A stretch of 64,000 nucleotides of DNA, from IMG/VR virus record IMGVR_UViG_3300045988_181101; one strand, written 5' to 3'. The position numbers were made by a program, and so were the translations under genes. Shown here piece by piece: positions 18,952-44,372 of this stretch. Numbering within the stretch: position 1 is the stretch's first letter; each line of letters starts with the position of its first letter. The notes under the pieces are model-generated. The model did not search any database and was not told where the DNA came from. It worked only from the letters and a program-made list of their open reading frames with translations. The stretch is from a virus.

Positions 18952-19085
18952 TGTCAGTAAATTTCTTTGCATTCTTAATTGCTGTTTCAACCATCTTTTC
19001 AGTTAATTCTTTTCTCTCTTCTTCAGTCGCTCTATGAACAATACTTACACCACTTGTATCATTCCATCTTGAATTTTTTCTCATA
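18930..19085 (-). CDS. small hypothetical protein (51 aa)
   Basis: Hand-translated MRKNSRWNDTSGVSIVHRATEEERKELTEK..., preceded by a promoter box at 19106-19114. It falls below the track size cutoff. Confidence 0.3.
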
Positions 19086-29966: not shown

Positions 29967-31106
29967 TTATATTATAATTCTTATTTCATTTTCAGTCCTA
30001 CACTTATCTCGAATCCTTTTAACCTTATCTAAAATGTTTAATAAATTGTGACTACATAGTATAATATTTTCAATTTCAATCAATTCATCTAATCTATCGT
30101 TCCTATAGAATTCATCAATTATTTTTACAATTTTCCTTTGAATTATTTCTTCTCCAATATTATCTGATATCTTGTATAATTGCGCTTTAACTCTATAATA
30201 CGCTCTATAACAAGGATCTTGAATCAATTCTAATCTACTTTCACTATTATTTTTAGAACATTCACCATTATAACCTTTTCTATCATATATCAATTTTTTA
30301 CTCTTATGTACAGAACCTATTCTTCTTTCTACTTTAATATGAAAATGTTCAAGTATAATATTAAGTGCTTCATTAAGTTCTTTTCTATTGTTAGGAGAAA
30401 ATATTGTTTTCGTTCTTGTTCCTTTATGTTTACGAATCAACTCATCATTAGGATTTTTACTTCTATATCTAAAATATTTCTTTAGTTGTGGTATTCTTTG
30501 ACTTATTTCTTCGAATTTATGCAGTATATTCCTTACTTTATATATAGATAAGCCTGTTTTTGATGCAATATATTCAACACTTTCATAATGTTGAAATTTA
30601 GATGCCATTTTTTCTGCTTTTTCAAATGGATTATCATCCTTCTTAATAGGTAAGATGTATTTTGTTATTCCGTATTTTGCACTTATAAGGCATTCTATCA
30701 CTTCCAATTCCTCTATACCAAAATGATATAATTCATCTTTGATCCTAAAAGTAGCTCTCATTGGATTAGTAAGATTGTGAAAATAAATTCTATTCTTATA
30801 ATATTTATAATCACCGTTTTCATCTTTCCATTCACTTTGTTCTTCCGGTAGAGGGTCTTCTTTTAAGATTTCAACATAAACTTCTCCTTTTTCAAACTTT
30901 AATCTTATAAGATTGTAAGTATAAGTGAATTCTAATAAGATTTTCTTTACCTTATCTGTAGATAACATTAATTCTTGGGAGATTAGATCAATTAGATCTT
31001 TCTTAGAAGAGAACTTTCTGCAAGGATAATCTTCAACCATTCCTGCAATCATCATCAGGATTTTAAAAACTTGCCTTTCGGCTATATTATATATTTTTTT
31101 ATTCAT
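29967..31106 (-). CDS. hypothetical protein with HTH-like segment
   Basis: 379 aa with VEYIASKTGLSIYKVRNILHKF. It has its own promoter box at 31133-31141. Confidence 0.7.
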   Translation of the reverse strand: MNKKIYNIAERQVFKILMMIAGMVEDYPCRKFSSKKDLIDLISQELMLSTDKVKKILLEFTYTYNLIRLKFEKGEVYVEILKEDPLPEEQSEWKDENGDYKYYKNRIYFHNLTNPMRATFRIKDELYHFGIEELEVIECLISAKYGITKYILPIKKDDNPFEKAEKMASKFQHYESVEYIASKTGLSIYKVRNILHKFEEISQRIPQLKKYFRYRSKNPNDELIRKHKGTRTKTIFSPNNRKELNEALNIILEHFHIKVERRIGSVHKSKKLIYDRKGYNGECSKNNSESRLELIQDPCYRAYYRVKAQLYKISDNIGEEIIQRKIVKIIDEFYRNDRLDELIEIENIILCSHNLLNILDKVKRIRDKCRTENEIRIII

Positions 31107-31132
31107 GTTATTTTTTTGATTTTTTAGTGTTG

Positions 31133-31141
31133 TAAAGATAG
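31133..31141 (-). promoter_or_regulatory. -7 box CTATCTTTA with TTG 19 nt upstream
   Basis: The minus strand reads AGGTTG-N19-TATCTTTAC, about 27 nt upstream of the ATG at 31106. Confidence 0.5.
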
Positions 31142-31162
31142 ATAGAATTCTTCAATCTACAA

Positions 31163-31201
31163 CCTATAAAAAGAAAAATCTGAGTAACGCTTTACTCAGA
31201 T
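31163..31201 (-). terminator. rho-independent terminator
   Basis: 10-bp perfect stem ATCTGAGTAA/TTACTCAGAT (31178-31201) with a 4-nt loop, followed by TTTTCTTTTT on the minus strand. Confidence 0.65.
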
Positions 31202-31276
31202 CAATTTCTTTACTAAAAAACCAAAAAATTATTATGAACAAAATTTCTTTTGCCGAAAGTAAGCCTCGCGGCTTTC
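31165..31276 (-). ncRNA. candidate small non-coding RNA (orphan promoter to terminator, about 110 nt)
   Basis: Bipartite promoter (TTG-N19-TATCTTTAC, box at 31283-31291) and the terminator at 31163-31201 bracket a stretch with no ATG. That stretch contains a GC-rich GNRA-loop hairpin (AAGCC-GCGA-GGCTT). Confidence 0.3.
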
Positions 31277-31282
31277 TGAGTG

Positions 31283-31291
31283 TAAAGATAC
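31283..31291 (-). promoter_or_regulatory. -7 box GTATCTTTA with TTG 19 nt upstream (no ORF downstream)
   Basis: The minus strand reads CGATTG-N19-TATCTTTAC. Confidence 0.45.
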
Positions 31292-31551
31292 TACCTTTTT
31301 TTATATCTGCAATCGATAGAGTGTAAATCTCTGTCACTCTCATTTATTCTTTAATCTATTCTTAATCCCTTTATTTATGCAGGATTGAAGATTTCTGAAA
31401 ATCTATTATATAACATAATTCTATGTAATAGGATTTTCTCTTATCTTTCTTATATTCCTAATAAAAAGAATAAATATAATTATTAAACTCCTTATTCTTA
31501 TAAGGAATATAATAGAGTTTAATTTCTCCTCAATCCCGCATAAATAGGAAG

Positions 31552-31935
31552 TTATAAGAGAAGAGGAAGGATTAGTATCAAAAACATAAAAAGCAAAATG
31601 AAAAACCAAATAGGATTCAAAGGCTTTTTATCGTCATTATTCTCTACTTCTGAAATGTATTCAGATCTTTCTTGATCTATACGATCACTTTCTATTCGAG
31701 ATGGTGAAGTAGAAGGTCTATTTGTCACCACTTCATTAACTTTTCTTTCTCCGACCATATAAAGTCCTAAGAAAGCAAGAAATGGTGAAAAGAAAATAGC
31801 AAGAATAACCCAACCTGTTTGACTTCGATTAAATCGTTCAGCATATTTGCTTACTGCCCATAATAAAAAGATTAATCCTGCTGCACTCCAAAGAATGCTA
31901 ATCATACTAATAAGAAAAAAGTTTAATGGATTCAT
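31552..31935 (-). CDS. small membrane protein (two N-terminal TM helices)
   Basis: 127 aa with LISMISILWSAAGLIFLLWAV and WVILAIFFSPFLAFLGLYMV. Confidence 0.7.
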   Translation of the reverse strand: MNPLNFFLISMISILWSAAGLIFLLWAVSKYAERFNRSQTGWVILAIFFSPFLAFLGLYMVGERKVNEVVTNRPSTSPSRIESDRIDQERSEYISEVENNDDKKPLNPIWFFILLFMFLILILPLLL

Positions 31936-31950
31936 AATTTAAATTTTTAA

Positions 31951-32364
31951 TTAGTTAATAAAATCTACTTGAATTTCTCCCGTTTCTATTTGTTTTATCA
32001 AGTCTCTTATATCCTCACTTACAAGACTCGATATTCTACCTATATCATCTTTAAAACCTAATAAATAAGTTTTATATTTTCCTTGATAGAAATCATTATA
32101 TTTCTTCTGAGCTATCCAAGGATATGGAGCTTTAATAAAACAATAGGGTCCTGTAATTTTATAGTAATAAGGATTTTGTTTAATAGAACCTACTAAGAAA
32201 ATGGTAGGTTCTACAGATTCTATTTCAAAAGCTTCAATTGGATGAAGTATATGATAATCCATAATTTTTCTTGTTGAACGAGCTTGATGTTCGTTAACTT
32301 TTTCGTAAATCATTCCATTGTAAGAAAAGAATTCTCCTACTTTAAGATTTTTAAATAATATCAT
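31951..32364 (-). CDS. hypothetical protein
   Basis: 137-aa co-oriented ORF. No motif recognised. Confidence 0.7.
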   Translation of the reverse strand: MILFKNLKVGEFFSYNGMIYEKVNEHQARSTRKIMDYHILHPIEAFEIESVEPTIFLVGSIKQNPYYYKITGPYCFIKAPYPWIAQKKYNDFYQGKYKTYLLGFKDDIGRISSLVSEDIRDLIKQIETGEIQVDFIN

Positions 32365-32408
32365 ATCAATATAATTTTAATAATTAGAAGTTCTTTGATG
32401 TGTACTGT

Positions 32409-32627
32409 TCATAATCTATTCTTACATATTTGTTTCAACCTCTCTAAATCTTTTCGTTTAGGCTCGTCTGCATTCTTAGTAGCGTCTATTATTGTCATAT
32501 CGCTAACTATTGCAATCCATTGTTTTCCCGTTACAGGACTTGTATAAGTTACTTTATAGTGTCCATAACCTGATTGGATAAAATTAAAATTTGAAAGTTG
32601 TGTCTTTGTCTTCATAATCTTTATCAT
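32409..32627 (-). CDS. hypothetical protein
   Basis: 72 aa. The first codons MIKIMK lie inside the repeated promoter cassette and are shared with 40380-40535. Confidence 0.65.
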   Translation of the reverse strand: MIKIMKTKTQLSNFNFIQSGYGHYKVTYTSPVTGKQWIAIVSDMTIIDATKNADEPKRKDLERLKQICKNRL

Positions 32628-32712
32628 TTTTAGTTGTCCTTTTTCAATACCTAAAGATACTCCTTATTTTGGAGATAACAAACGTTTATCTATATTTATG
32701 GTCGAAATTAAG
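32611..32712 (-). promoter_or_regulatory. conserved promoter/stem-loop cassette, copy A
   Basis: The minus strand reads AGATAAACGTTTGTTATCTCCAAAATAAG-GAGTATCTTTAGG-...AAAGGACAACTAAAAATG, with TTTG-N19-TATCTTTA. It is one of four copies. Confidence 0.65.
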
Positions 32713-32721
32713 GACTTTTAA

Positions 32722-32754
32722 TAAAACTCTAACAATCTCTCTAAGTCAGGAAGC
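32722..32754. repeat. inverted repeat, left arm (33 bp, perfect)
   Basis: TAAAACTCTAACAATCTCTCTAAGTCAGGAAGC is the exact reverse complement of 33547-33579. Confidence 0.95.
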
Positions 32755-33154
32755 TGGAGAAATAACGCGAGTAACAATATCAGATGCATTAGTGTCATAT
32801 GGAACTATTTATGGTTATCTAAATAGTCCTGAAGGACCTTCGGTAATAATAGGTGAATTGAAAAATTATATGCTTGTATCTTCAAGAACGTATGGATATA
32901 CGTTCAAAGCAGTTGGTAGTGGAAATGTATCAATATCATTGAATTTAATCTTAAATACTAAAATATCATCACATACTGTAACGGAAGCTACAGGAGGAAT
33001 AACTGCTGACAAAATGTTTATTGTACAATCTACATCCGGAAGTATAATTACAATTAGGTTTGATAATTCTCCAAGTGGTGCAACAATTTCATCCAAAGTT
33101 TATTTTGAAGGATATATAAATCCTATATTAATGGACTTTACAATTGAACGTTAA
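32722..33154 (+). other. silent alternative C-terminal cassette for fibre gene 33210-34613
   Basis: The plus-strand frame reads KTLTISLSQEA across the repeat, then 133 further codons (GEITRVTISDALVSYG...DFTIER stop). There is no ATG or promoter: the track start is a TTG inside the promoter cassette. Confidence 0.6.
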
Positions 33155-33172
33155 TAATTAATATATTACATA

Positions 33173-33201
33173 ATAGTCGGGTAAAATTTTACCCGACTAT
33201 T
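33173..33201. terminator. bidirectional terminator-like perfect palindrome between the two convergent cassettes
   Basis: AATAGTCGGGTAAAATTTTACCCGACTATT lies between the stops at 33154 (+) and 33210 (-). Confidence 0.6.
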
Positions 33202-33209
33202 ATGTACTC

Positions 33210-34613
33210 TTAATAAATGGTTAATGTTATTTCATCATAAGAGTTGCCTAATTGTATTGTTCCTGTAACTTTACCATCTCTATTTGTATATCTATAATTT
33301 TCAAAATCTGTACTACTTGAAAAATTACCACTTATGCCAACTGGAGGATAATCCATATCATCAAGAAAATGAATTTCACATTCCTCACATTGAGGTTCAA
33401 GAATAAGTTCTCCTCCTAAAGGAACATATAAATTTTCAGAAGTATATTGTTCAATTCGACCACTTGCATCATCTGTAAACCATTTTATTATCGGTGATCC
33501 TCCTTGAACGACATCAAACATAACACTAATAAATACTAATACTCTTGCTTCCTGACTTAGAGAGATTGTTAGAGTTTTACCACTGCTTTGTTGAGAAAGA
33601 GTAAGGGTACCTGTTCTTTGGAATGCAGCAAGATTATTTGCAGCTACTATATAGATTTCACTTGTATCATAGGAAGAAACAGAGAATGTACTATCTCCAC
33701 TAATACTTGGTGTATATGGAACTGCTGCTACTTCTGTAGTTGGATTACCATTTATATATTTTCGTCTTATTGAATTTACTGCTATTCTTTTTGTTTCACC
33801 TGTTGCTATAAAGGAAAGACTTGTAGTAGCTGATGTAAATTCATGACCCCATGTAATAGAAGCTGCAGCCTGAGTAACACTAACAGTAAAAGTATTTCCA
33901 CTAACACTCTGAGTAAAGACAACACTCCAACTTCTTGAACTTTCAACAACATTTTCTGTTACAGAGAAAGTCGTTCCTGATACAGTCAAACCTCCTTCTG
34001 GAGAAGATGATGAATAATCAAGATTTTCAGTACCAACTTGATGTCCATTAATATACTTCGTTCTATAAGAAGTAACTGAAATAGATTGACTATTTGCTGT
34101 CGCACCAAATGAAAGACTTGTTGTTGATGGTGAGAATGTATAAGTATAAGTAGGAACTCCTGCAGCCTGAGTAAAGTTCACAGTAATTTCTTGGTTAGTA
34201 ACAGACTGTTTAACACGAATATAACCTGATTTCTGTGATTCTGTCGTTTGATCTGCATTAGCATGTACTGAAACTGAATTTCCACTCACAGAATAAGTTG
34301 CCCAACTTGCATTGAATTCTGAAACTGACCAAGCAAGAGCTTCACCTCCAATTGTAGAGGTAACAGTAAAACTTTCACTACCAGTATTCTGAGGTAATTG
34401 AAATGAAGTTCTACTTACACTAAATGCAGCCTCAGCATATATTACATTATCCATAATAGGAATAGCAACATCTGAATAACTTCCCTCTATTCTTGCAAAT
34501 GGAGAAGTATCTAAGATTTCTTTTTTTGTTAGAAATCTATCTGCACCACTACCACTCGGGAATTCAGGTATTTTATTATGAACGAGATTTCTCGTTGCAA
34601 ATTCTTTACTCAT
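33210..34613 (-). CDS. tail fibre/receptor-binding candidate with three BACON/Ig-like repeats and exchangeable C-terminus
   Basis: 467 aa. Repeats end in ...ITVNFTQAAG, ...FTVSVTQAAA and ...TLTISLSQEA. The last repeat end coincides with the inverted repeat. The current C-terminal 112 aa are encoded by 33210-33546. Confidence 0.65.
   Translation of the reverse strand: MSKEFATRNLVHNKIPEFPSGSGADRFLTKKEILDTSPFARIEGSYSDVAIPIMDNVIYAEAAFSVSRTSFQLPQNTGSESFTVTSTIGGEALAWSVSEFNASWATYSVSGNSVSVHANADQTTESQKSGYIRVKQSVTNQEITVNFTQAAGVPTYTYTFSPSTTSLSFGATANSQSISVTSYRTKYINGHQVGTENLDYSSSSPEGGLTVSGTTFSVTENVVESSRSWSVVFTQSVSGNTFTVSVTQAAASITWGHEFTSATTSLSFIATGETKRIAVNSIRRKYINGNPTTEVAAVPYTPSISGDSTFSVSSYDTSEIYIVAANNLAAFQRTGTLTLSQQSSGKTLTISLSQEARVLVFISVMFDVVQGGSPIIKWFTDDASGRIEQYTSENLYVPLGGELILEPQCEECEIHFLDDMDYPPVGISGNFSSSTDFENYRYTNRDGKVTGTIQLGNSYDEITLTIY
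33547..33579. repeat. inverted repeat, right arm (33 bp, perfect)
   Basis: Exact reverse complement of 32722-32754, located inside CDS 33210-34613. Confidence 0.95.
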
Positions 34614-34647
34614 ATCATTAATCTTATATAAACGAATAAAAACAATC

Positions 34648-35085
34648 TTATCTATAAAGTAATTCGTGAAGAGTCAGATCTTTTTTCCTTCTTATAGAAA
34701 CATTCATATATTTAGGAAAGTCAAGATTTTCTTCATTTAAAAAGTCAACGAATACTTGCCATGAAATCATATAAACAGAACCACAACGAAAATCCATCTT
34801 ATACATTTTCCATAAAGGTTTATCCTCTTTAATAGAAATACATTTCAAAGGATCTTGTTCATCATTAGATTTAAAGTTCTCAACAAGTTTCATCTTACCA
34901 AACCAAGAAATATTATATCCAGGAATAAGAACAAGAATATCTTCTTTAGGATATTCAAGATATTCCTCAATTATCTTTACTTCTTCATCAGAGATAAGCA
35001 TTCTATCTTTAATTTGAGAAAGGTATAGACGAAATCCTTTCATTTCGTCTACTACCCAATTATAACCTATTTTATAAGTACTCAT
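34648..35085 (-). CDS. hypothetical protein
   Basis: 145-aa co-oriented ORF. Confidence 0.7.
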   Translation of the reverse strand: MSTYKIGYNWVVDEMKGFRLYLSQIKDRMLISDEEVKIIEEYLEYPKEDILVLIPGYNISWFGKMKLVENFKSNDEQDPLKCISIKEDKPLWKMYKMDFRCGSVYMISWQVFVDFLNEENLDFPKYMNVSIRRKKDLTLHELLYR

Positions 35086-35087
35086 AA

Positions 35088-35312
35088 TTATAGAATTTCT
35101 TCATTTTTATTCCATTCTTCATTATTCAGGACGCTACCAAGTTCTCTACTGTTATGTTCGTAAACCGTTAGTTTATCCTCGTCAGTCAACACAGGATGCA
35201 CAAAGTCATAATGAAGAATAACCTTACTTCCGTTCACACTCTTACGCGCATGCTCAGGTACTACTATTCCCTTTTGCAAACACCATTCTACTGTTACAAT
35301 TACATATTTCAT
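35088..35312 (-). CDS. hypothetical protein
   Basis: 74-aa ORF with a 4-nt overlap with the LamG gene. Confidence 0.6.
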   Translation of the reverse strand: MKYVIVTVEWCLQKGIVVPEHARKSVNGSKVILHYDFVHPVLTDEDKLTVYEHNSRELGSVLNNEEWNKNEEIL

Positions 35313-36037
35313 CCGTTTAATCTTTTAGTCCAAATTTCATTTAACTTTATCTTCTCTTGCTCTATTTCATCAGGAGTGAGAGATTTATCGTAGAGGGCGA
35401 AGTAGTAGATAGCACCATGCAGATAACGATTATCATTCTTCCTGGTATTCCCTAAATATAATAAATTAGTATCTGTTCCAGATCCTTTTGTTATATTAGT
35501 TCCATTATAGGATGTACTCGTCTGATATGATATCGAATCAGATTTTTCTACTAATATTGAAGATAAAGTACCAAACGAACGGCATTGATCATTTGTACTA
35601 TTTTTAAGAAGTTCAAAAATGAAAGCACCAGTATCATAAGATAAACTCTTAGAAGCTACTACTGTTTCATTATCATCTTGTTTATCCCAAATCTGTCTCC
35701 TACATATCACTGTATAATCCGTTTGTATCGGCATATTGTCACATACAGCATAATCATCTACACCATCGAATACAAGAGAACCTTCATAAGAAGAAGCCAC
35801 TTTTCCTTCGTCATTTCCGCCACTGTGTTGTCCGCTTCCACCAAATCCGCTATTAGGAGTAAACGCAAAGTTCTTCAGCACAAGTTCATGTCCCTTGTAA
35901 CCACTTATCGAAGCAGGAGGATTATCATTGCTGTATCCTGACATAAACCAAGCGTCAACAAGGGACTTATCAAATGAAATTTCTGATTCAGTTCCATGTA
36001 CATGTCTAAATGGAATTCCTATACCTCTTCCTATCAT
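35309..36037 (-). CDS. LamG/concanavalin-like domain protein (fibre/adhesin candidate)
   Basis: GSLVFDGVDDYAVCDNMP...LHGAIYYFALYDKSLTPDEIEQE follows the Laminin_G_3 pattern. Confidence 0.65.
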   Translation of the reverse strand: MIGRGIGIPFRHVHGTESEISFDKSLVDAWFMSGYSNDNPPASISGYKGHELVLKNFAFTPNSGFGGSGQHSGGNDEGKVASSYEGSLVFDGVDDYAVCDNMPIQTDYTVICRRQIWDKQDDNETVVASKSLSYDTGAFIFELLKNSTNDQCRSFGTLSSILVEKSDSISYQTSTSYNGTNITKGSGTDTNLLYLGNTRKNDNRYLHGAIYYFALYDKSLTPDEIEQEKIKLNEIWTKRLNG

Positions 36038-36100
36038 ACTATATACTCCTGATTAGACGAAAGTTTCTTATTATTAAAAACATAACATCTTGACATTTCA

Positions 36101-36424
36101 TTACCAACCTATATTAAATTGTGCAGTCGTTCCGTCTCTATATACCGTTTCCACTAAATAAGGAATAGGTAAACCAAGATTAGCAGTAATTTCTGCTTTA
36201 GAGATCGTATAATCTTCTCTACCACCAACAAGTCTTACTTTAATTGTACCTTCAGTAAGAGGTATAACATAGAAGTAATTGGGTCTATCCTCTTCTCCAA
36301 GAAAAGTTGTATCAAGATTGTCTACTATCATACCAATAGAGAATGCTCTTGAGATAGTCATAGATGAAACTGTTCCATTTTGATTGACTATCGCTGTTCT
36401 ATTATAACTTATATTTTTATTCAT
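36101..36424 (-). CDS. hypothetical protein (fibre module)
   Basis: 107-aa ORF. Confidence 0.65.
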   Translation of the reverse strand: MNKNISYNRTAIVNQNGTVSSMTISRAFSIGMIVDNLDTTFLGEEDRPNYFYVIPLTEGTIKVRLVGGREDYTISKAEITANLGLPIPYLVETVYRDGTTAQFNIGW

Positions 36425-36427
36425 ATC

Positions 36428-37585
36428 TTAAAAATTAACAATTGATTGATTTCCTAAATTTGAATATGGTCTTAAAATATATTGATCAGAAAGTAAATAA
36501 CAGTTCGTTTCTAAAGCAACAGATACATCATAATATAATGTACTCGACATATCAATTTCAACAGCTAAATAACCTTCGTTAGAATTTGACGTATAAAGTA
36601 CGCTGGGGAATATTGATGTATTAGTATGTTGAAGTACTTTAACATGAAGGTTATTTTCTATTACACAAAAGTAGAAAGTTAAAAAAGTCGCATTTGAATT
36701 TGATATCCTCTGAGTGATTGTAACCATACCTGAACAAGTATTTTCACTTGCGTTTAAAGGACATCTAAGAATATTATAATAATTTCTACTGCTAATAGAT
36801 AAAGATCCTCTAACTCTATTTCTTTGATAGGTCGTTGATTCGTTGTTTGTACAAGATAAAGTGTTGTTTGTACATTGAATCACAAGTCTTCGTACTACTA
36901 AAATATTCTGATCATCTTCAAATGGAGATGAAGATGACATATTTAAAACCCAGTTTGTATTATCAGTATAAACACTTTTTATATTCCAAACTATAGTTCT
37001 GTCATTTTGATCTCCTCTTGAAACAAAAATAGCAGTAGTATCTTTAGCTCTAATAGCGATATCAGAAACGCTGTCTACATACTGTCCAAGAGCATTAAGA
37101 ATATCCTGATGAGAAGAAGACATTGTTATATTTACTATACTTTTATCAAGATAATAAATATTTGCCAAAGTATAAGATAATAAATTATTCGTAAGACTCA
37201 TCGAACCAGCAGAAAGAGTAAAAACTTTCTTTCTACTTACATTATTAATATACTGAGGATTAGGTAAGTTAATGATAGTTAAAGTGTAATTATTCGCATC
37301 TTCATCTACAGTAGCACTAAAATTAAAGCAAGATCTTGCTACTGTAAGAGAATTATTAGTAGACGATCCAAAATAAGGTGGAATACCTTTTGATACCTTT
37401 TTACATATATTTTTAAATGCTTCTTCTCCACCAAATGCACTAAGAATATCTGACGAAGAAGCTCCTGTTTTTAGAGAAGAAACAGCATCAGGTATCAAAA
37501 CCATTCCTCCTACTTCATTATTAAGAACTCGACCAATAGATTCGTCTATCTCAGGTCCAGTATATAAACTATTATAATCGGCCAT
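36428..37585 (-). CDS. tail fibre-like protein candidate
   Basis: 385 aa. The N-terminal YTGPEIDESIGRV resembles fibre N-termini, and the protein is Ser/Asn/Thr-rich and beta-like. Confidence 0.4.
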   Translation of the reverse strand: MADYNSLYTGPEIDESIGRVLNNEVGGMVLIPDAVSSLKTGASSSDILSAFGGEEAFKNICKKVSKGIPPYFGSSTNNSLTVARSCFNFSATVDEDANNYTLTIINLPNPQYINNVSRKKVFTLSAGSMSLTNNLLSYTLANIYYLDKSIVNITMSSSHQDILNALGQYVDSVSDIAIRAKDTTAIFVSRGDQNDRTIVWNIKSVYTDNTNWVLNMSSSSPFEDDQNILVVRRLVIQCTNNTLSCTNNESTTYQRNRVRGSLSISSRNYYNILRCPLNASENTCSGMVTITQRISNSNATFLTFYFCVIENNLHVKVLQHTNTSIFPSVLYTSNSNEGYLAVEIDMSSTLYYDVSVALETNCYLLSDQYILRPYSNLGNQSIVNF

Positions 37586-37615
37586 ATTATATTAATTTTG
37601 TGAATATTCTGAACG

Positions 37616-37624
37616 TAAAGATAA
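37616..37624 (-). promoter_or_regulatory. -7-like box TTATCTTTA upstream of fibre genes
   Basis: TATCTTTAC lies about 30 nt upstream of the ATG at 37585. No clean TTG is present at -33. It is adjacent to an 18-bp tandem duplication. Confidence 0.3.
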
Positions 37625-37656
37625 GAAACATATTTAATATAAGAAACATATTTAAT
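37621..37656. repeat. perfect tandem duplication 2 x 18 bp (ATAAGAAACATATTTAAT)
   Basis: Read directly from the sequence. Confidence 0.9.
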
Positions 37657-37815
37657 AAAAAACCGGATAATCTTTCTCAAGATCACCCGGTCAAACAACT
37701 TTTTATATAAAGATTCAAATCACAGAATGTTAAAAACGACAGAAACAATCATTCCGTAAAAAGAAAGTAACAATGACGTTGTAAATTTACAATGATATTT
37801 TCATTTAAACAACTC

Positions 37816-38398
37816 TTATCTTATTTTCATATTAGATACAGGTCGAACCCAATTGTAATTGCCCTGAACGTCGCCGCTCCAATAACCATTGCACCAACAG
37901 AGAACAAAATTGCGTTTGTTTCCTTTTCTCGTAGAACACCAATACCAGTCATCTTTCACTGGTTGTTTTCCGCAGATAGCTAAGGCTGCATTCAGCATAA
38001 CCTTATGTTCATACCCTAAGACACTCTCTTGTAGTGTAGGAATGCGCCAACTTAATCCACATAAGTCCAATGCTATGACTTTCTCAGCAATTTCGCTTCC
38101 GGATGCAGCCAATGCTTTGGTATTGCCTATTCCATCGGTATCCTTCATGCCTTCTTCTGTGGTTGGATATATCTTTCCTGTTTGCTCTTTCTCCCAATCA
38201 AGAAGAATATGGGTATCATTATCCATATCTTCCGGATAGAAGAATAAAGCATTGCCATCATGGATAATAACTACACATTGTGCCTGTTCGTTTTCTTCAT
38301 GCAGTCCCCAAAATTTAGGTTCTACAAAATTCTTATTGACGGTAAAGATGAATACACCATTACCTACATTTTCTTTTGTGTAAATTCCTTTTTTTCAT
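37816..38398 (-). pseudogene. DUF1566-like protein gene interrupted at an A7 tract right after its ATG
   Basis: WRIPTLQES...WYWCSTR...NYNWVRPVS follows the DUF1566 pattern. The frame is open for 57 codons upstream of the track start, up to ATGAAAAAAAGG at 38387-38398. Removing one A gives MKKGIYTKENVGNG... in frame. Confidence 0.6.
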
Positions 38399-38403
38399 AA
38401 TAG

Positions 38404-38805
38404 TTATATAAGTTTTAATGCTTCTTGTATCCCGGCTTCCAGTGCTTCCTCGTAGGTGACATATACTTTATAGCCATTCCCTTTGTTTATTTCGTTCTCC
38501 ATCCAGTCGCTTTCTTCTGTTGGAACATTGAAATCACAAAAAGAAAGCTTCCATCTTTTTCCAATAACAGGTTCTACATATACATACACACCTCTTATTT
38601 TACGCAGCCACTTTTGGGCGATATACAATGTTGGACACAAAAATTCAACAGGTTCGTCATCTATTTCCGTACAACACGACATACTTTGCGGAAGGTTATA
38701 TTTTGTAATAACCTTATTACGGTCTATTAGGTGTTCACACTTCCAATCAAATCCTTTCTCCTTCAGCAACTTCGCTGTTTCTAATGTTACGAGTTCTTCG
38801 GTCAT
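38404..38805 (-). CDS. hypothetical protein (higher-GC island)
   Basis: 133-aa ORF. Confidence 0.7.
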   Translation of the reverse strand: MTEELVTLETAKLLKEKGFDWKCEHLIDRNKVITKYNLPQSMSCCTEIDDEPVEFLCPTLYIAQKWLRKIRGVYVYVEPVIGKRWKLSFCDFNVPTEESDWMENEINKGNGYKVYVTYEEALEAGIQEALKLI

Positions 38806-38807
38806 AA

Positions 38808-39278
38808 TTAACTTTTATTAAAGTGTTCAATCAATTCGTTTACGGTAGCCTTGTGATAACGTCCTGAAATAATAGTTTCATGATTCCAATTTTCATTCCA
38901 AAAGAACATAATGCCTTTGGGTTCTGTGAAATAATGATCGTTGCCAATAGAATCATCATAAGAAACGCTAAGGAGCGAATCTGTTATAAACCACTGATTC
39001 TTATTTGTATCATCTCTCAATGCAGAGATAGCTAAGAAAAGTTCTTCGTTGGTTCCGCAATCAATTCTTCCAGCACAATTCCAAGTTCTATGTGGGTCTA
39101 CTGAATCAAACATCTCATTTGTGATGATTGTGTATTTAGCATACACATTATTTGCTGTTGTTGCTAAACACAACTTATCGTTATTAGATATTGTTCTTGA
39201 TTTGTACCCTAATTTTTCCAACTTCTTCCTTAATTCCGGTGTGTTTTTACGTATGAAACATGGTGTTGTAAATCCCAT
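38808..39278 (-). CDS. hypothetical protein (higher-GC island)
   Basis: 156-aa ORF. Confidence 0.7.
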   Translation of the reverse strand: MGFTTPCFIRKNTPELRKKLEKLGYKSRTISNNDKLCLATTANNVYAKYTIITNEMFDSVDPHRTWNCAGRIDCGTNEELFLAISALRDDTNKNQWFITDSLLSVSYDDSIGNDHYFTEPKGIMFFWNENWNHETIISGRYHKATVNELIEHFNKS

Positions 39279-39280
39279 AG

Positions 39281-39490
39281 TTATTCCTTCTTATCTATCT
39301 TAATATCCGTTACTTCTCCACGATTAATAAAACGTTCATCAGAGTTATAATATCCAGCAATTACTTTACACAAGGGACGATCCATTCTACATTGTTCTTG
39401 TAGACTACAATTGTCACATGGTGAACTATTCTGCATTAATACTAATTCATGCAGCACCCCATCTATTATTATTCCGTTCTTTACTTCCAT
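39281..39490 (-). CDS. small Cys-containing hypothetical protein (higher-GC island)
   Basis: 69-aa ORF with SPCDNCSLQEQC. Confidence 0.6.
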   Translation of the reverse strand: MEVKNGIIIDGVLHELVLMQNSSPCDNCSLQEQCRMDRPLCKVIAGYYNSDERFINRGEVTDIKIDKKE

Positions 39491-39492
39491 GA

Positions 39493-39801
39493 TTATTCTT
39501 CTTTCTCTTTAATCCGTTCCAGTACATCCTTGTTGGCTTCGAGTATTTCATCGAAAGAGGAGATGGGCATCCAGTGGGTAACACCACCATCATAAGCAGA
39601 TAAATCTTGTCCTGTATAAAATTTACCTCCACAGTAAAACAGAACACGATATTTATAACGTCTGCCTGCAACAAACACCCATCCGCTATCTTCCGGCAAC
39701 CGTTCTTCTACTCTTATCCAAGGCGACTTAACCTTAGCATACTCCACATCCGTAGATTCCTTTTGAAGATGCCCGTCTGCTGTTTTTGTTGTATGTTTCA
39801 T
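39493..39801 (-). CDS. DUF551-like protein
   Basis: WIRVEERLPEDSGWVFV...GGVTHWMPI follows the DUF551 pattern. Confidence 0.6.
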   Translation of the reverse strand: MKHTTKTADGHLQKESTDVEYAKVKSPWIRVEERLPEDSGWVFVAGRRYKYRVLFYCGGKFYTGQDLSAYDGGVTHWMPISSFDEILEANKDVLERIKEKEE

Positions 39802-40200
39802 AGTAATATTTTATTTATTCTATTAACAGCCTTATCAAATTCTTTATTAAATTCATTTATATTAATTTCCTCACCAAGAGTATGAACGTATGTATAATAG
39901 TGGGGATTAATTTTAAATACTCCGTCCTTATCGGTTTGGAATGTCACCACTATGCAGCTTGATAAGACTTTATCGTTTTTCATTCCACCCATGTATATAT
40001 CGTTTGGGGTTATAGATATAATTTTATAATACGAATACCAATAGTCCGACGGTTTCTTGGGGCAACTATATGAATCTCTACGCTTGAAACATTTCCCAAT
40101 AAGTGATGCAAATTTGGGATATTCTGCTTCTATCAAACTCTGCCGTTCTTGCTTTTCAATTTCGGCTAATTGTTTTTTTTAATTCTTCTTTCTTGTTCAT
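39798..40200 (-). pseudogene. hypothetical protein gene interrupted at an A8 tract near its 5' end
   Basis: From the ATG at 40198-40200 the frame reads MNKKEELKKTISRN and then stops. The long downstream frame (track start is a TTG at 40136) opens exactly at the A8 tract (40173-40180). Removing one A gives MNKKEELKKQLAEIEKQERQSLIEAEYPKF... Confidence 0.55.
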
Positions 40201-40209
40201 ATTTTCCTG

Positions 40210-40377
40210 TTACATGTTATTTAATTTTTCCTCAAACTCAGCAATGATACAATCCACATCATCGCCATGTACCCAATTCTCCAATACGGAAGAGAGAATT
40301 TCGATTGCCTTTCTAGATGTTTCGTCAACTGCCATATTGATCGCTTGATTCACTTCCTCTAACGTAAACATACTCAT
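40210..40377 (-). CDS. small acidic hypothetical protein (55 aa)
   Basis: Hand-translated MSMFTLEEVNQAINMAVDETSRKAIEILSS... It falls below the track cutoff. Confidence 0.4.
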   Translation of the reverse strand: MSMFTLEEVNQAINMAVDETSRKAIEILSSVLENWVHGDDVDCIIAEFEEKLNNM

Positions 40378-40379
40378 AA

Positions 40380-40535
40380 TTATTCCTCCTTCTTTTTAAG
40401 GCTTATATCAATTGACAACCTATCGACAATTTCCTCTAAATTGTCCTTATCATCTAATTCAGATAATGCTTGTTTAAACTCTTTGAGTTTCTTAATGTCT
40501 TCAGTGTTTAATATAGGTTTCATAATCTTTATCAT
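40380..40535 (-). CDS. small hypothetical protein
   Basis: MIKIMKPILNTEDIKKLKEF... The start is set at ATG 40533-40535. The longer track ORF reads through the promoter cassette. Confidence 0.55.
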   Translation of the reverse strand: MIKIMKPILNTEDIKKLKEFKQALSELDDKDNLEEIVDRLSIDISLKKKEE

Positions 40536-40603
40536 TTTTAGTTGTCCTTTTCTTTTGATATTGTAAAGATACGACTTATTTTGGAGATAACAAACGTTTA
40601 TCT
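40519..40603 (-). promoter_or_regulatory. conserved promoter/stem-loop cassette, copy B
   Basis: It shares the leader with copy A and the promoter-proximal variant (TGTAAAGATACGAC on plus) with copy C. Confidence 0.65.
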
Positions 40604-40800
40604 TTAAAAATTCTTTTCTTTTCTGTATTAAAATCGTCTGTATGTCCAACAATCTTTTGTGATAAAATAGTTAATCCACTTTTATCTTTTCGAAATACAG
40701 TTTCTACAGTAACATCATCTTTATGTCCGAAATCAATAGATACGATTGCATCTCCGTATTTTTCAATGAAAACATCCTTATCGTTTTTCATCTTCTTCAT
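40576..40800 (-). CDS. hypothetical protein
   Basis: 74-aa ORF whose 3' end runs into cassette copy B. Confidence 0.55.
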   Translation of the reverse strand: MKKMKNDKDVFIEKYGDAIVSIDFGHKDDVTVETVFRKDKSGLTILSQKIVGHTDDFNTEKKRIFKDKRLLSPK

Positions 40801-40930
40801 TGTCTTTAATAAATTCTACCTCATTAAAACTAAGTTCTCTTACTTCTTCATTCTCTTCATCAATAATGATTCGAGAAAAGTCCTTTACTTCAATTATTTG
40901 ACCCGTTGCTTTGATTTTGATTTTTAACAT
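40778..40930 (-). CDS. small acidic hypothetical protein (50 aa)
   Basis: Hand-translated MLKIKIKATGQIIEVKDFSRIIIDEENEEV... It overlaps both neighbours. Confidence 0.25.
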   Translation of the reverse strand: MLKIKIKATGQIIEVKDFSRIIIDEENEEVRELSFNEVEFIKDNEEDEKR

Positions 40931-41411
40931 AACATTCGATTTTTAAATTAGATTCTTTTCTTCTTCTAAGCATTGCGACACAACCTTTATAAGATCCATA
41001 ATGGATCATTTTGCCAGTATTGGTATCTATTACACAAAAAAGATTTTGATCTTTCTCTCCTATGATAATCATAGAGTCAAAATAGGTGTTTTCTTTCGTT
41101 ATACGATAGCGTAATTTAACTCTATCTCCTATATTAGGACAAGACTTTTTAGATCTAAAAAAATCTGTATTTAACGAGAAGAGTTGAGATCTATTAAGAT
41201 ACTTGAACTCAGGATTATCTTTAAGTTCTTGTGAGTCTATACGATATCTTGGAGGTAGATTTTCTTTTTGAAATTTACTAACCACAACTCCTTCCCAAAT
41301 GTGCCAGTCAATCTTTCGATTTTTCTTAATCACTTTTTGCATTTTAAGAACCGTTCTTCTTCGAAGTTCCTGTTTTAGTTCTTCGATAGTGTAATCACTT
41401 AACTCTTTCAT
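40890..41411 (-). CDS. hypothetical protein
   Basis: 173-aa ORF. Confidence 0.7.
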   Translation of the reverse strand: MKELSDYTIEELKQELRRRTVLKMQKVIKKNRKIDWHIWEGVVVSKFQKENLPPRYRIDSQELKDNPEFKYLNRSQLFSLNTDFFRSKKSCPNIGDRVKLRYRITKENTYFDSMIIIGEKDQNLFCVIDTNTGKMIHYGSYKGCVAMLRRRKESNLKIECYVKNQNQSNGSNN

Positions 41412-41414
41412 AAC

Positions 41415-41615
41415 TTATTTGATTTTATATACTCCTCTTGAATAACGTTCAATTCTTCCTAAAGCAACTTGTTTAGACAAGAAATCGTCAACTATACTTC
41501 TTGACCATCTTGGATGGAGATTGAATTCATTTTCTATTTTACCAATCAATACTGTACGTCTTATTGTACTACCTTTTTCACTAAGAAATGATGATAGAAA
41601 TTCTTTTTTATTCAT
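41415..41615 (-). CDS. hypothetical protein
   Basis: The start is set at MNKKEFLSSF (ATG 41613-41615), which removes the overlap with the upstream gene. Confidence 0.6.
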   Translation of the reverse strand: MNKKEFLSSFLSEKGSTIRRTVLIGKIENEFNLHPRWSRSIVDDFLSKQVALGRIERYSRGVYKIK

Positions 41616-41622
41616 ATTTATT

Positions 41623-41901
41623 CTAATTATCAAAATCTTCTTCAAATGACTTCATCTCTTTCTCAATAATCTTTTTGAATTGTTGAGCATCTTCAAATCT
41701 TTCTTGTTTGACTGCTAATTCTAAAGATCCATTTAGAAGAGCAATATATTTAAGACGTGTACGTCTATCAATTTCTGTAGTTGAAAACGCTATTTGACTG
41801 TTAAATAGTGCAATATCTTTGATAAAGAAATATATTTTAAACAATATAAAACAACTCACACCAATTAAAATAATAACGATTATTAATAATATGTTTACCA
41901 T
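41623..41901 (-). CDS. small membrane protein (one N-terminal TM)
   Basis: MVNILLIIVIILIGVSCFILFKIYFFI... Confidence 0.65.
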   Translation of the reverse strand: MVNILLIIVIILIGVSCFILFKIYFFIKDIALFNSQIAFSTTEIDRRTRLKYIALLNGSLELAVKQERFEDAQQFKKIIEKEMKSFEEDFDN

Positions 41902-42083
41902 TATATCTCTACTCTTATATAATTACTAAAATCACAATACAAATACTTACACCAACCTCCTAACTTGTATTTATCGTTTACATATCTACAACAAGAAGTC
42001 CATTTATCTTTACGAATGATTTCATATACAATATTTTTATGAATAAAAATGTCTCCTTCTTTCAATTTAAATATCTCAATCAT
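41901..42083 (-). CDS. hypothetical protein
   Basis: 60-aa ORF that abuts its neighbours. Confidence 0.55.
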   Translation of the reverse strand: MIEIFKLKEGDIFIHKNIVYEIIRKDKWTSCCRYVNDKYKLGGWCKYLYCDFSNYIRVEI

Positions 42084-42265
42084 CTAAATGTATAATTAAT
42101 CAAATCGCTTATCCAAGTTAGAAATTGAATTGCCATAAAAAATATTACTACACTAAGAATAGCAATTATACTGTACCAAAACTTAACCCAAATCTCTCTA
42201 TATTTTGCTTTCAAGACTTTCTTACCAAAACGTCCATGAATAAAGTTTTCAATTTTCGTCATCAT
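42080..42265 (-). CDS. small membrane protein
   Basis: The start is set at MMTKIENF (ATG 42263-42265), 5 nt after the upstream stop. It has a C-terminal TM helix, WYSIIAILSVVIFFMAIQFL. Confidence 0.55.
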   Translation of the reverse strand: MMTKIENFIHGRFGKKVLKAKYREIWVKFWYSIIAILSVVIFFMAIQFLTWISDLINYTFR

Positions 42266-42269
42266 AGCA

Positions 42270-42836
42270 TTATTTTCTTTTGCGTTGATCATTAATTTTA
42301 TTTTCTCCCCAAAGTTTCCATACTCTATGTACATTAGTATAAGAACAACCAATGATCTTACTAATCTTATAATGTGACCAAGTAGGATGATCTTTCATCA
42401 TTTGAAGAATATTTCTTGATTGTTCACCTTTAGGTGCATCAATAGTAGTTTTATAGACTGTCTTATTCTTTTTCTTAGATGAAAGTTTTACAAGTGAAAT
42501 AATGTTTAAGAATCGATCTACACTTGCAACAATAAATCCAAATTCATTAGCATTTATTGATTTAAATGCTTTGTCTAAAGCTTCTTTATCTTTGTAATGC
42601 AATTCGAATTCACCATTATTCTTCTGTAGAATAGAAGTAGGATTTTCATTGAGAAACGATTCAAGAGCTTCTTTATTAGTAGAAAGATTCTTCAGGTCTT
42701 CAAGATCCTTTCTCTCACACTCTTTTTCTTCAACGAGCTTTATAAGCTCATCTTTCTTGTATTGCTTAACATTCTTAATGCCAAGTTCACTTGCTCTCTT
42801 TCTTAAAACTTCTACTGTTACATTCATCTTTTCCAT
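42270..42836 (-). CDS. DNA-binding protein candidate (Rho_N/SAP-like N-terminus, C-terminal HTH)
   Basis: VEVLRKRASELGIKNVKQYKKDELIKLV at the N-terminus and SHYKISKIIGCSYTNVHRVWK at the C-terminus. Confidence 0.5.
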   Translation of the reverse strand: MEKMNVTVEVLRKRASELGIKNVKQYKKDELIKLVEEKECERKDLEDLKNLSTNKEALESFLNENPTSILQKNNGEFELHYKDKEALDKAFKSINANEFGFIVASVDRFLNIISLVKLSSKKKNKTVYKTTIDAPKGEQSRNILQMMKDHPTWSHYKISKIIGCSYTNVHRVWKLWGENKINDQRKRK

Positions 42837-42872
42837 AATTAGTTCGTTTTTAATTATTTTTCTTTCAATGCT

Positions 42873-42881
42873 TAAAGATAC
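42873..42881 (-). promoter_or_regulatory. -7 box GTATCTTTA with TTG 21 nt upstream
   Basis: The minus strand reads GTGTTG-N21-TATCTTTAAG upstream of 42836. Confidence 0.5.
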
Positions 42882-42926
42882 TATTTTGTTATGTCCTATG
42901 CAACACTTTTCGAAGAATAATCTTAA

Positions 42927-43244
42927 TTATTTATTAGGTGTTGCAGTACAATTACCACAACCAACTATTTCACTATAGTCTCCTTTGATAACACGTATCA
43001 TAGCTTCGAAAATATAACGTACTTCGTTATAATCAGAAAAACCAAATTGAATGTATTTACAACGAAATATTTTAGCTTTCGTATTCTTTATATAGCCCAA
43101 ATAATAACCATTTAAATTACCCATATTTGAAGCTCTATCTATAATAACTTCGAAATTATTACCTTCGTGTTCTACAATAGCATACCAAGAATCATTTTCA
43201 TACTTAGTTCTTGCTTTTTCAAATCTATGACTTATTATTTTCAT
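42927..43244 (-). CDS. hypothetical protein
   Basis: 105-aa ORF. Confidence 0.65.
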   Translation of the reverse strand: MKIISHRFEKARTKYENDSWYAIVEHEGNNFEVIIDRASNMGNLNGYYLGYIKNTKAKIFRCKYIQFGFSDYNEVRYIFEAMIRVIKGDYSEIVGCGNCTATPNK

Positions 43245-43249
43245 AACTG

Positions 43250-43570
43250 TTATTTTGTAAGATACTTCATATCTTTATCATTATGGTACCAATCTGTTTC
43301 TATAGGATACTTAGGATCAAACCTATATACTAAAGTTAAATTAGTTCCTTTGTTACTAAGAGGACTTTCAGAAGTTGATTTTGTAATATTGTCAACTTCT
43401 ACAGAATGAAGATTGATATTGCGTCCATATAATTCAAGTTTAGAAACTAAATTAATGATATCTTCAATCTTGCGACATGTATATTCACAGACTCTTATCC
43501 CATCTTGAAATTTTGTAATTTGAGAGATTTTCTTTTCTGCATCAAATAACTTTTTTGACATAGTTTTCAT
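43250..43570 (-). CDS. hypothetical protein
   Basis: 106-aa ORF. Confidence 0.65.
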   Translation of the reverse strand: MKTMSKKLFDAEKKISQITKFQDGIRVCEYTCRKIEDIINLVSKLELYGRNINLHSVEVDNITKSTSESPLSNKGTNLTLVYRFDPKYPIETDWYHNDKDMKYLTK

Positions 43571-43596
43571 TCGTTTATTAATAGATGAATAATATT

Positions 43597-43869
43597 TTAA
43601 ATAGCTAATTTAGTCTTTGCTTTCAAATCATATTTATCCCAGATTTCCTCAGCGTGAGATTTAACACAATCTACAACAGTTCTATGGTCTGTTAAATTCA
43701 TATTAAGGACTTTATTACCTTCCTCACAATACAATATTAAAGTAGTACCATTAATAGTACCAATTTGTTCTCCTTGAAAATAGATTGCTGAAATAACTCC
43801 ACTTCCTGCAACTCGTTCAAGTCTACGAGGTTTATAGACTATTTTAGATGTGAATTTAATCTTTTTCAT
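43597..43869 (-). CDS. hypothetical protein
   Basis: 90-aa ORF. Confidence 0.65.
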   Translation of the reverse strand: MKKIKFTSKIVYKPRRLERVAGSGVISAIYFQGEQIGTINGTTLILYCEEGNKVLNMNLTDHRTVVDCVKSHAEEIWDKYDLKAKTKLAI

Positions 43870-44111
43870 AGCTTCTCAAGTATATTAAGAATTTCTTTTT
43901 GTTTGGTCTTACTAAGTTTACTCCAACTCAAATCTACTTTGAAATTATCTGAAACTAACGATACCGTAGCAGGACCATTTTTTATAGGATTGTAGAGTAT
44001 CTTATCTGCCTCGAGTGTATTAGTAGGAAGGTTAATAAGACCAACAGCAATACCTTTTCTCATTCTCTTTTCTACTTCGATTAGAATTGGTGTAATTTCT
44101 TTTGATGTCAT
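43866..44111 (-). CDS. hypothetical protein
   Basis: 81-aa ORF with a 4-nt overlap with the downstream gene. Confidence 0.65.
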   Translation of the reverse strand: MTSKEITPILIEVEKRMRKGIAVGLINLPTNTLEADKILYNPIKNGPATVSLVSDNFKVDLSWSKLSKTKQKEILNILEKL

Positions 44112-44132
44112 AATTCTATCATCTTTTTATAA

Positions 44133-44372
44133 TTAAAATTCTACAAAGATCAGTCTTTTCTTCCTACCTGCCTCGCACACCCACATGTGATTTGAGCCAA
44201 AACCGTAATCGAAATAAGTATTGAAATCAGGATATTTTTCCTGTATATTCTTCATATTTCTACGAAGTTCAATTTCATCAGTGCTTCTCATAATTACATT
44301 AAGAATTACAACATAAGTTATAGTAGCAAGATTGTCCATGTTTAAAAATTCTGATTCGACTATTGTTTTCAT
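44133..44372 (-). CDS. hypothetical protein
   Basis: 79-aa ORF preceded by a promoter box at 44412-44420. Confidence 0.65.
   Translation of the reverse strand: MKTIVESEFLNMDNLATITYVVILNVIMRSTDEIELRRNMKNIQEKYPDFNTYFDYGFGSNHMWVCEAGRKKRLIFVEF

Follow-up and report, generated by a model that had tools for sequence, protein, structure and literature searches.

A probable DNA-inversion switch for the C-terminal domain of a presumed surface protein with Ig-like repeats in a gut phage

The exchange of the C-terminal part of a phage protein through DNA inversion is a principle some 45 years old, and the closest described representatives for the present work are the G segment of phage Mu and the C segment of P1, which are inverted by Gin and Cin, respectively (with Pin of e14 and Min of p15B as further members). 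In these systems a segment bounded by inverted repeats, which are 34 bp long in Mu, lies inside a phage tail-fibre gene whose promoter, start codon and constant N-terminal part are located outside the segment, and two alternative C-termini face each other within it and are swapped in frame. In the current study we analysed a stretch of 64,000 nucleotides of viral DNA (IMG/VR record IMGVR_UViG_3300045988_181101, hereafter the window), in which positions 32,722 to 34,613 hold a locus that shares this architecture and has a repeat of similar length (33 bp). Both orientations of its segment occur in public assemblies, which bears out the Mu G- and P1 C-like logic that a preliminary description of this DNA had proposed. 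We consider it very probable that the locus is a working DNA-inversion switch, which exchanges the C-terminal domain of a virion-surface phage protein composed of immunoglobulin (Ig)-like, BACON-like repeats.

The locus departs from the Mu and P1 segments in several respects. Its segment measures 0.79 kb as opposed to 3–4 kb, it includes no second gene equivalent to a U/U′-type partner, and it carries a central palindrome that is likely to be a terminator; moreover, the encoded protein is unrelated and consists of Ig-like BACON-type repeats, while the phage is without an integrase, is apparently virulent and presumably infects a host belonging to the Bacteroidota. No serine invertase was found beside the segment or in the genome, and the 33-mer lacks the 26-bp dyad-symmetric crossover site of the gix/hix type that is used by the Gin/Hin family. 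With no invertase gene found, there is likewise none that could contain a Fis-bound recombinational enhancer. In-frame exchange of a C-terminal specificity domain by inversion is also known from shufflons (R64 Rci, acting on PilV) and from the ‘gene-altering programmed inversions’ described in bacterial genomes, whose confirmed targets include prophage tail-fibre genes (Milman et al. 2023, PMC9881135). In contrast to shufflons, which contain several segments separated by 19-bp sfx repeats, each genome studied here has one segment with two cassettes and only two copies of the repeat, and no Rci-type tyrosine recombinase was found; unlike shufflons and programmed inversions alike, the element resides in a free phage genome recovered from metagenomes rather than in a prophage or plasmid. 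A Piv/IS110-type system would involve a DEDD transposase-like family, and no such family was present among the Pfam matches obtained here.

Invertons of the Bacteroidales themselves (the Mpi and Tsr promoters as well as intragenic elements) vary the surface by inversion in the same ecosystem and in what is presumed to be the same arms-race context. However, these are host loci with known invertases, which are usually encoded nearby or, in the case of Mpi, act on a defined consensus, whereas the repeat described here has no exact match in representative bacterial genomes. The diversity-generating retroelements of Bacteroides phages likewise generate variety at the C-terminal tip of a surface protein, yet neither a reverse transcriptase nor a template repeat nor a direct repeat of the cassettes was found here, and variation takes the form of a two-state swap combined with ordinary divergence. 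Tandem BACON repeats beside tail genes have been reported in crAss-like phages and in two further lineages of gut phages (De Jonge et al. 2019, PMC6949934), in a paper in which we found no mention of inversion, and a 2026 paper (PMC13501310) describes 16 putative viral invertons, illustrated by one in a microvirus capsid gene. The literature searched contained no account of the present system, nor of a surface protein switched by inversion in a phage that infects Bacteroidales or in another virulent gut phage. What is new here is the occurrence of the principle in a widespread, apparently virulent gut phage and in an unrelated protein family, in the form of a minimal module with a palindromic, probable terminator.

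Architecture of the invertible segment

A 33-mer, TAAAACTCTAACAATCTCTCTAAGTCAGGAAGC, is located at 32722–32754 (+), and its exact reverse complement at 33547–33579. The preliminary description had reported this perfect inverted repeat, and a search that tolerated up to three mismatches returned these two copies only in the window and no match at all in 100 dinucleotide-preserving shuffles. It is the sole long perfect inverted repeat with a spacing of up to 6 kb across the 64 kb, the runners-up at such spacing being 20–36 nt long with 72–91% match. Both arms translate, in the same frame as had been stated, to KTLTISLSQEA, the right arm being positioned inside a 467-amino acid (aa) gene on the minus strand (33210–34613) and the left arm inside a plus-strand frame (32669–33154). 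Between the arms are 792 bp (858 bp with the arms included), which hold two convergent C-terminal cassettes, both in frame with the 467-aa gene, and a palindrome between them. The features of the locus are listed below.

33580–34613, minus strand: constant N-terminal part, consisting of an N-terminal region of about 65 aa followed by three Ig-like (BACON-like) repeats
33547–33579, no strand: right arm of the 33-bp repeat, within the expressed gene, encoding KTLTISLSQEA as the last strand of the final Ig-like repeat
32755–33546, no strand: invertible segment (792 bp), reversed in nine relatives (five with the same cassette pair, four with diverged alleles)
33210–33546, minus strand: cassette A, the expressed C-terminal domain (RVLVFISVMFD...ITLTIY), 111 aa and stop
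33167–33206, no strand: perfect palindrome of 40 nt between the convergent cassettes, forming a hairpin on either strand, likely a bidirectional terminator
32755–33154, plus strand: cassette B, the silent alternative C-terminal domain (GEITRV...MDFTIER), 132 aa and stop, without an ATG of its own
32722–32754, no strand: left arm of the 33-bp repeat, heading the silent cassette and encoding KTLTISLSQEA on the plus strand
32409–32627, minus strand: open reading frame (ORF) of 72 aa directly downstream, uncertain as a member of the system

Cassette A, which is expressed in the window, comprises 111 codons and a stop after the right arm, and cassette B, which is silent in the window and unrelated to A, comprises 132 codons and a stop after the left arm; the two alternative in-frame tails of the preliminary description thus stand, with their lengths corrected from 112 and 133. 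The palindrome is likewise perfect and placed between the cassettes as described, although it covers 40 nt (33167–33206) and not 29 bp (33173–33201). The plus-strand frame has indeed no ATG, and translation could begin at the earliest at a TTG that precedes the repeat. This frame had also been described as the only plus-strand coding potential in 64 kb, which requires qualification: the plus strand has further ORFs of 100 aa or more, whose coordinates overlap those of minus-strand genes, and 32669–33154 is the only one that sits in a gap between such genes. With the same exception, all gene-sized ORFs in the 64 kb that do not overlap a longer ORF are on the minus strand. In the following, related loci are designated by L numbers and proteins by P numbers. 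Public gene calls present the silent cassette B as a stand-alone protein of 161 aa (L060:4460-4945 and L061:2548-3033, corresponding to 32669–33154 of the window), and a silent A-type cassette as a protein of 140 aa (L067) or, cut at its end, of 132 aa (L004).

In the mechanism that we propose, recombination between the 33-bp arms would flip the 792-bp segment. The constant part of 356 residues, which has the promoter and the start codon, would thereby be joined in frame to cassette A to yield the 467-aa product or, alternatively, to cassette B to yield a 488-aa product, and the 40-bp palindrome would end transcription in either state. The palindrome is predicted to form a hairpin with an 18-bp stem (−27.4 and −26.5 kcal/mol on the two strands; z-scores of −7.6 and −6.6), and none of 200 shuffles folded as well. 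By virtue of being palindromic it reads identically after a flip, and it is kept in relatives, including one lineage in which a symmetric apical change from AAAATTTT to AACATGTT preserves the palindrome. A simple terminator scan did not call it, as it is not accompanied by a U-tract; its form and position make it a likely bidirectional terminator that would serve whichever cassette is expressed.

Both orientations in public assemblies

The evidence on orientation consists of assembled contigs and protein sequences as opposed to mapped reads, and 14 loci were read for orientation, repeat and cassettes. A protein-guided scan of IMG/VR identified two contigs of approximately 77–100 kb (L001 and L002) whose flanks are 98–99% identical to the window and whose segment between the arms is inverted and 72% identical to it; their gene encodes 488 aa ending in a homologue of cassette B, and the homologue of cassette A is silent on the opposite strand. 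Closer relatives are inverted as well, since L004 matches the window at 99.8% identity in the flanks and, in inverted orientation, at 98.95% over the 858 bp from repeat to repeat, and in L007 the inverted repeat-to-repeat stretch is 99.3% identical. The protein database contains the 467-aa form A (P0001) together with a 488-aa protein (P0007) whose constant part is 99% identical and which ends in the window’s own cassette B with five substitutions, and a partial protein (P0012) has cassette B with two substitutions. P0007, P0078 and further proteins represent 488-aa fusions in which cassette B is expressed. The fusion of the alternative C-terminus to the constant part, which the preliminary description had predicted as the outcome of a flip, is accordingly present in the contigs and proteins of relatives.

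Each locus was also flipped in silico, followed by an exact search for the predicted flipped protein. The flipped product of L061 (JGI 3300076320, A expressed) was matched exactly by P0078 in the collection, and P0078 is carried by L067 (ENA ERZ27258821, contig k141_100559, 102,992 bp), in which B is expressed. When L067 was compared to the flipped L061, 3,535 of 3,535 bases were identical, the orientation of the 792-bp segment being the only difference between the two genomes over this distance. This identity apart from the flip indicates that the inversion is exact, conservative, bounded by the repeat and recent, and the pair exemplifies the orientation polymorphism among related genomes that the preliminary description had called for.

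Both states are common. For the cassette pair of the window (A1/B1), A is expressed in the window itself, in L060 (ENA ERZ28597095, 105,449 bp, 100% identical to the window over the compared parts and hence probably its source contig) and in L061, and B is expressed in L004, L005, L007, L055 and L067. For a diverged pair (A2/B2), B is expressed in L001, L002, L056 and L057, and A in L058 and L062. A third type of cassette, C (GEGVKTY...LNLRRP, with a 479-aa product), was encountered at L006:7036-7440 (Logan ERR14040750) and in P0008 and P0011; in L006 it is expressed and a B-type cassette is silent, and this pairing of C with a silent B implies that the population holds at least three cassette families in different pairings. 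By cluster membership, the approximate numbers of sequences are 20 expressing A, 50 expressing B and two expressing C.

A scan of IMG/VR with the repeat returned only two contigs, both of which were already in the locus set, and a metagenome scan gave five loci, the derived peptide patterns being short. Contig breaks near the repeat were considered as a possible sign of mixed populations and were not relied upon, as those outside Logan are not exactly at the branch point. Logan contigs, which we take to have been assembled with a k of about 31, may simply break at the repeat.

Divergence of the cassettes and nature of the protein

The silent cassette retains an intact, uninterrupted frame in all 11 cases read. 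The two arms are identical at 33 of 33 positions in most loci and at 32 of 33 in L006, L057 and L058, and the boundaries and length of the repeat are constant in every strain in which both arms are present. Where the repeat differs between lineages, the change affects both arms alike (positions 10–11 read AA, AT or CT), and such concerted change points to homogenisation between the arms. The module does not go back to the ancestor of the wider clade, given that the sister phage L065 encodes an orthologous repeat protein of 392 aa (38% identity) with neither the repeat nor the cassettes.

The cassettes diverge fast. Among 13 related loci the constant part is 97.7–100% identical, and between the window and L004 its 1,065 nt differ at two sites (0.19%), whereas cassettes A and B differ by 1.2–1.3%. 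Among close strains cassette B has accumulated no synonymous and two to six non-synonymous changes, and between allele groups, where nucleotide divergence amounts to 28%, the ratio of non-synonymous to synonymous substitution rates (dN/dS) is 0.5–0.6 for A and about 1.05 for B (overall range 0.5–1.08). Despite this divergence, the cassettes have retained their length, their frame and the C-terminal motif VYFEGYxNPIxMDFT. On the sequences compared, the pattern fits that of an exposed binding tip under diversifying selection; the cassettes would then be ligand- or receptor-binding tips, and switching between them may constitute bet-hedging against variable host surfaces. A further form of variation was observed in the constant part, as four proteins of 587 aa (P0002–P0004 and P0006) have one 99-aa Ig-like repeat exactly duplicated in tandem (parent: window 33580–34613). 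The duplication junction depends on the allele background, falling between ...TQAA and G (with a shared stretch of 15 nt) or between ...SLSF and G (9–13 nt shared), from which we conclude that the duplications arose independently at short homologies.

Concerning the identity of the protein, the BACON label of the preliminary description is tentative: the Pfam family BACON (PF13004) matches the 467-aa protein in three stretches at a sub-threshold level (E 0.0029; 18 bits compared to a cut-off of 25), and homologues at 27–40% identity carry precomputed PF13004 matches. Apart from this weak match, Pfam and PHROGs searches of the gene, the cassettes and the neighbouring genes yielded chance-level matches only; neither collection gave a tail-fibre family for the gene or the cassettes, and cassettes A, B and C went unrecognised by both. 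When cassette B was compared by HMMER to 1.84 billion representative proteins, six weak matches were obtained, the best (1e-16) to a fragment of 102 aa, and the domain thus appears close to an orphan. A word-indexed protein search missed cassette B alone even though P0007 and P0012 (96–99% identity) were present, and negative results with such short queries do not equate to absence. The AlphaFold2 model of cassette B (pLDDT 64) is all-beta and has no Foldseek match in the PDB at E ≤ 0.001. Megablast of the 4-kb region against GenBank phages produced only a 378-bp match, to an unannotated fragment.

The phage and the catalyst of the inversion

Contigs bearing the locus reach 100–105 kb, and the phage is a Bacteroidota-type myovirus of the human gut with a genome of approximately 105 kb. 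The nearest named relatives of its major capsid protein are those of the ~179-kb Bacteroides thetaiotaomicron phages DAC19-23 and SJC03 (35% identity), followed by a Chryseobacterium phage and then by SPO1-like Bacillus phages. Relatives encode Baseplate_J and tail-tube-initiator genes, and other genes specify DNA polymerase III alpha, ribonucleotide reductase, an NAD-dependent ligase and a sigma-70-family factor. As no integrase was found the phage appears to be virulent, and its host is presumably a gut Bacteroidales species.

The search for a recombinase applied Pfam to the complete set of non-overlapping window ORFs with 60 aa or more, 80 in number, and to the approximately 40 kb of genome outside the window, put together from the relatives L010, L012, L016, L040 and L048, including an ORF of 2,062 aa. 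No Resolvase, Recombinase, Phage_integrase, DEDD transposase or reverse transcriptase match was found in these scans of the window and the remaining genome, and the earlier statement that no invertase is recognisable in the window can hence be extended to the rest of the genome. PHROGs assigned only unnamed families to the 26 ORFs at 29970–44372, on both sides of the locus. No internal dyad symmetry was detected in the 33-mer, 99% of shuffles having an equal amount or more. The repeat, searched as a 32-mer with three degenerate positions and as its inner 22-mer, had no exact match in 185,579 representative bacterial genomes, a search that misses divergent sites. A recombination gene cluster was observed at L016:5993-10001 (IMGVR_UViG_3300045988_178516), just upstream of window position 64000, in which a phage RecA (L016:7042-8019, 326 aa, E 2.7e-73) is flanked by genes of the Metallophos type (Mre11/SbcD-like) and the SMC_N type (Rad50/SbcC-like, 666 aa). 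An ORF of 173 aa after this cluster (63442–63963) begins with IGIDPG and looks RNase-H-fold-like by eye, with no Pfam or PDB match.

We tentatively and slightly favour a homology-driven inversion at the 33-bp repeat, carried out by the phage RecA and Mre11-Rad50-type machinery. The arms co-vary away from the centre of the repeat, as repair of a heteroduplex would explain more readily than would exchange at a fixed core. Genome isomerisation provides an analogy for such a catalyst, in that the L/S inversion of herpes simplex virus and the inverted-repeat flip-flop of plastids rely on general recombination machinery with no dedicated invertase, although the repeats concerned are kilobases long and are not known to switch protein-coding sequence. 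It is conceivable, and we would give the idea appreciable weight, that the switch is free of any invertase, i.e. that the repeat, two cassettes and a palindromic terminator suffice and that the general recombination of a virulent phage toggles its host-recognition tip.

The alternative that survives best, and which we regard as a serious possibility, accepts the switch as real and attributes it to a site-specific invertase acting in trans, either a hijacked Bacteroidales serine or tyrosine enzyme or an unrecognised phage recombinase. Bacteroidales carry many invertases, some of which act on distant sites, and the sameness of repeat length and boundaries in all strains with both arms would be in keeping with such an enzyme. 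Several neighbouring ORFs are without a recognisable family. The 72-aa ORF (32409–32627) is found in the relatives in which the downstream flank was read (L001, L002, L061 and L067) and is missing from the module-less L065; it is a formal candidate for a factor involved in the flip. These points are countered by the finding of no recombinase family in the ~105-kb genome and of no exact copy of the repeat in the representative bacterial genomes, and by the repeat itself, which has no dyad symmetry of the kind present in gix/hix or lox/FRT-type core sites and is unlike the gix/hix or Mpi consensus as we take these sites to be. Furthermore, co-variation of the arms at positions 10–11, outside any central core, needs gene conversion and not simple core exchange. 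A second neighbour, the 137-aa ORF downstream of the switch (31951–32364, minus strand), is cut to 44 aa in the pair that differs by the flip only (L061:3341-3475 and L067:5253-5387); it is therefore dispensable, was rejected as an accessory factor, and its truncation also speaks against an invertase in trans. In L065 an ORF of 94 aa takes the place of both the 72-aa and the 137-aa ORFs.

Several considerations weigh against a homology-driven switch of a receptor-binding tip as we prefer it. To our knowledge, the classical C-terminus-swapping inversions (Mu Gin, P1 Cin, e14 Pin, p15B Min and the R64 Rci shufflon) all employ a dedicated recombinase, which also favours an invertase in trans, and 33 bp is near the minimum length at which RecA-type recombination is efficient. 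ORFs down to 60–70 aa were included in the recombinase search at a Pfam E ≤ 1e-3, the part outside the window being sequence of relatives and not of the window’s own strain. The AlphaFold2 model of cassette A (pLDDT 40) is unusable, and the models are uninformative as regards the role of the cassettes; we infer virion location and receptor binding from the Ig-like repeats, the position upstream of the structural block, the nearby variable lectin-like genes and the divergence pattern. Finally, the two orientations were observed in separate contigs, and a mixture of both inside one population, with whatever rate of switching, is conjectural.

It is improbable that the two orientations are relics of rare accidental recombination at a chance repeat, with the silent cassette in decay. 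Such an account would be served by the failure to find a dedicated recombinase and by the evidence lying between contigs and not in within-sample reads; yet the flip is the sole difference between two genomes over 3.5 kb and is seen in at least two allele backgrounds, the silent cassettes are all intact despite 28% divergence between allele groups, the repeat is near-perfect and evolves in concert, the putative palindromic terminator is symmetric and conserved, and a perfect 33-bp repeat is not expected by chance. The view that the plus-strand frame 32669–33154 is an ordinary independent gene with an incidental repeat, for which its calling as a 161-aa gene in public assemblies might be cited, is very improbable: the frame has no ATG, only a TTG ahead of the repeat as a first possible start, it opens with the same 11-residue strand as the main gene, it is the sole plus-strand ORF of at least 100 aa between genes in 64 kb, and in many contigs its sequence is fused to the main gene as anticipated, as the C-terminal end of proteins of 488 or 587 aa. 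An assembly artefact, in which reads were mis-joined at the inverted repeat, can be dismissed even though several locus contigs are short or end near the repeat (L004, L005, L006 and L007), since each junction is present in long contigs whose names indicate different assemblers, two of which (the k141_* contigs L005 and L067) have k-mers spanning the repeat and its flanks, and since the flipped pair is otherwise 100% identical.

Further variable or mobile features were observed in the surroundings of the switch and in related genomes. Two genes upstream of the switch, a Laminin_G_3/ConA-like lectin protein (35309–36037, minus strand) has constant ends and a replaced middle, and its size is 242 aa in the window as opposed to 337, 357 and 368 aa in genomes that are otherwise 97–99% identical (homologues at L001:3232-4305, L002:3292-4305 and L003:3199-4305), which gives it the look of a second hypervariable protein with a surface location or binding function. 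Another Ig-like repeat protein, of 496 aa (26770–28260, minus strand), with four repeats by eye, is encoded directly upstream of the portal gene and is the likely source of the BACON (4e-17) and fn3_6 matches of the window; it is without an inverted repeat or alternative cassette. A neighbour of 379 aa had no sequence match in the PDB. In L040 and L048 (IMGVR_UViG_3300045988_179361) genes for FolE2, a 6-pyruvoyl-tetrahydropterin synthase-like (QueD-like) protein and a radical-SAM protein occur together, a set which suggests 7-deazaguanine modification of the phage DNA. Selfish elements are represented in the window by a Hint domain ORF and a GIY-YIG endonuclease (23482–23901 and 12826–13659; genes assigned from translations), in the replication region of the relatives L040 and L048 by Hom_end_hint and LAGLIDADG, and in a related phage by an intein in the portal gene (L066:5508-7889). 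The window also encodes a sigma-70-family factor (regions 2 and 4), an ADP-ribosylglycohydrolase and a NUDIX-domain protein (46288–46791, 18139–18990 and 21598–23436, all on the minus strand), whose family matches were placed on coordinates by reading translations.

Gut Bacteroidales are known to evade phages through DNA inversions that alter their capsules and surface proteins. The present findings suggest that a lineage of gut phages inverts the DNA of its own surface protein, such that this arms race would gain a reciprocal, phase-variable side. For such phages the prediction of host range from a single assembly sees one of two tips only, and promoter-less fragments of silent cassettes enter protein catalogues in the guise of genes. 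With its 0.86 kb the system is small, and it is self-contained. If it indeed operates with no dedicated invertase, any recombination-proficient phage that maintains a short perfect inverted repeat could have programmed inversions, and searches that set out from recombinase genes would overlook such switches.

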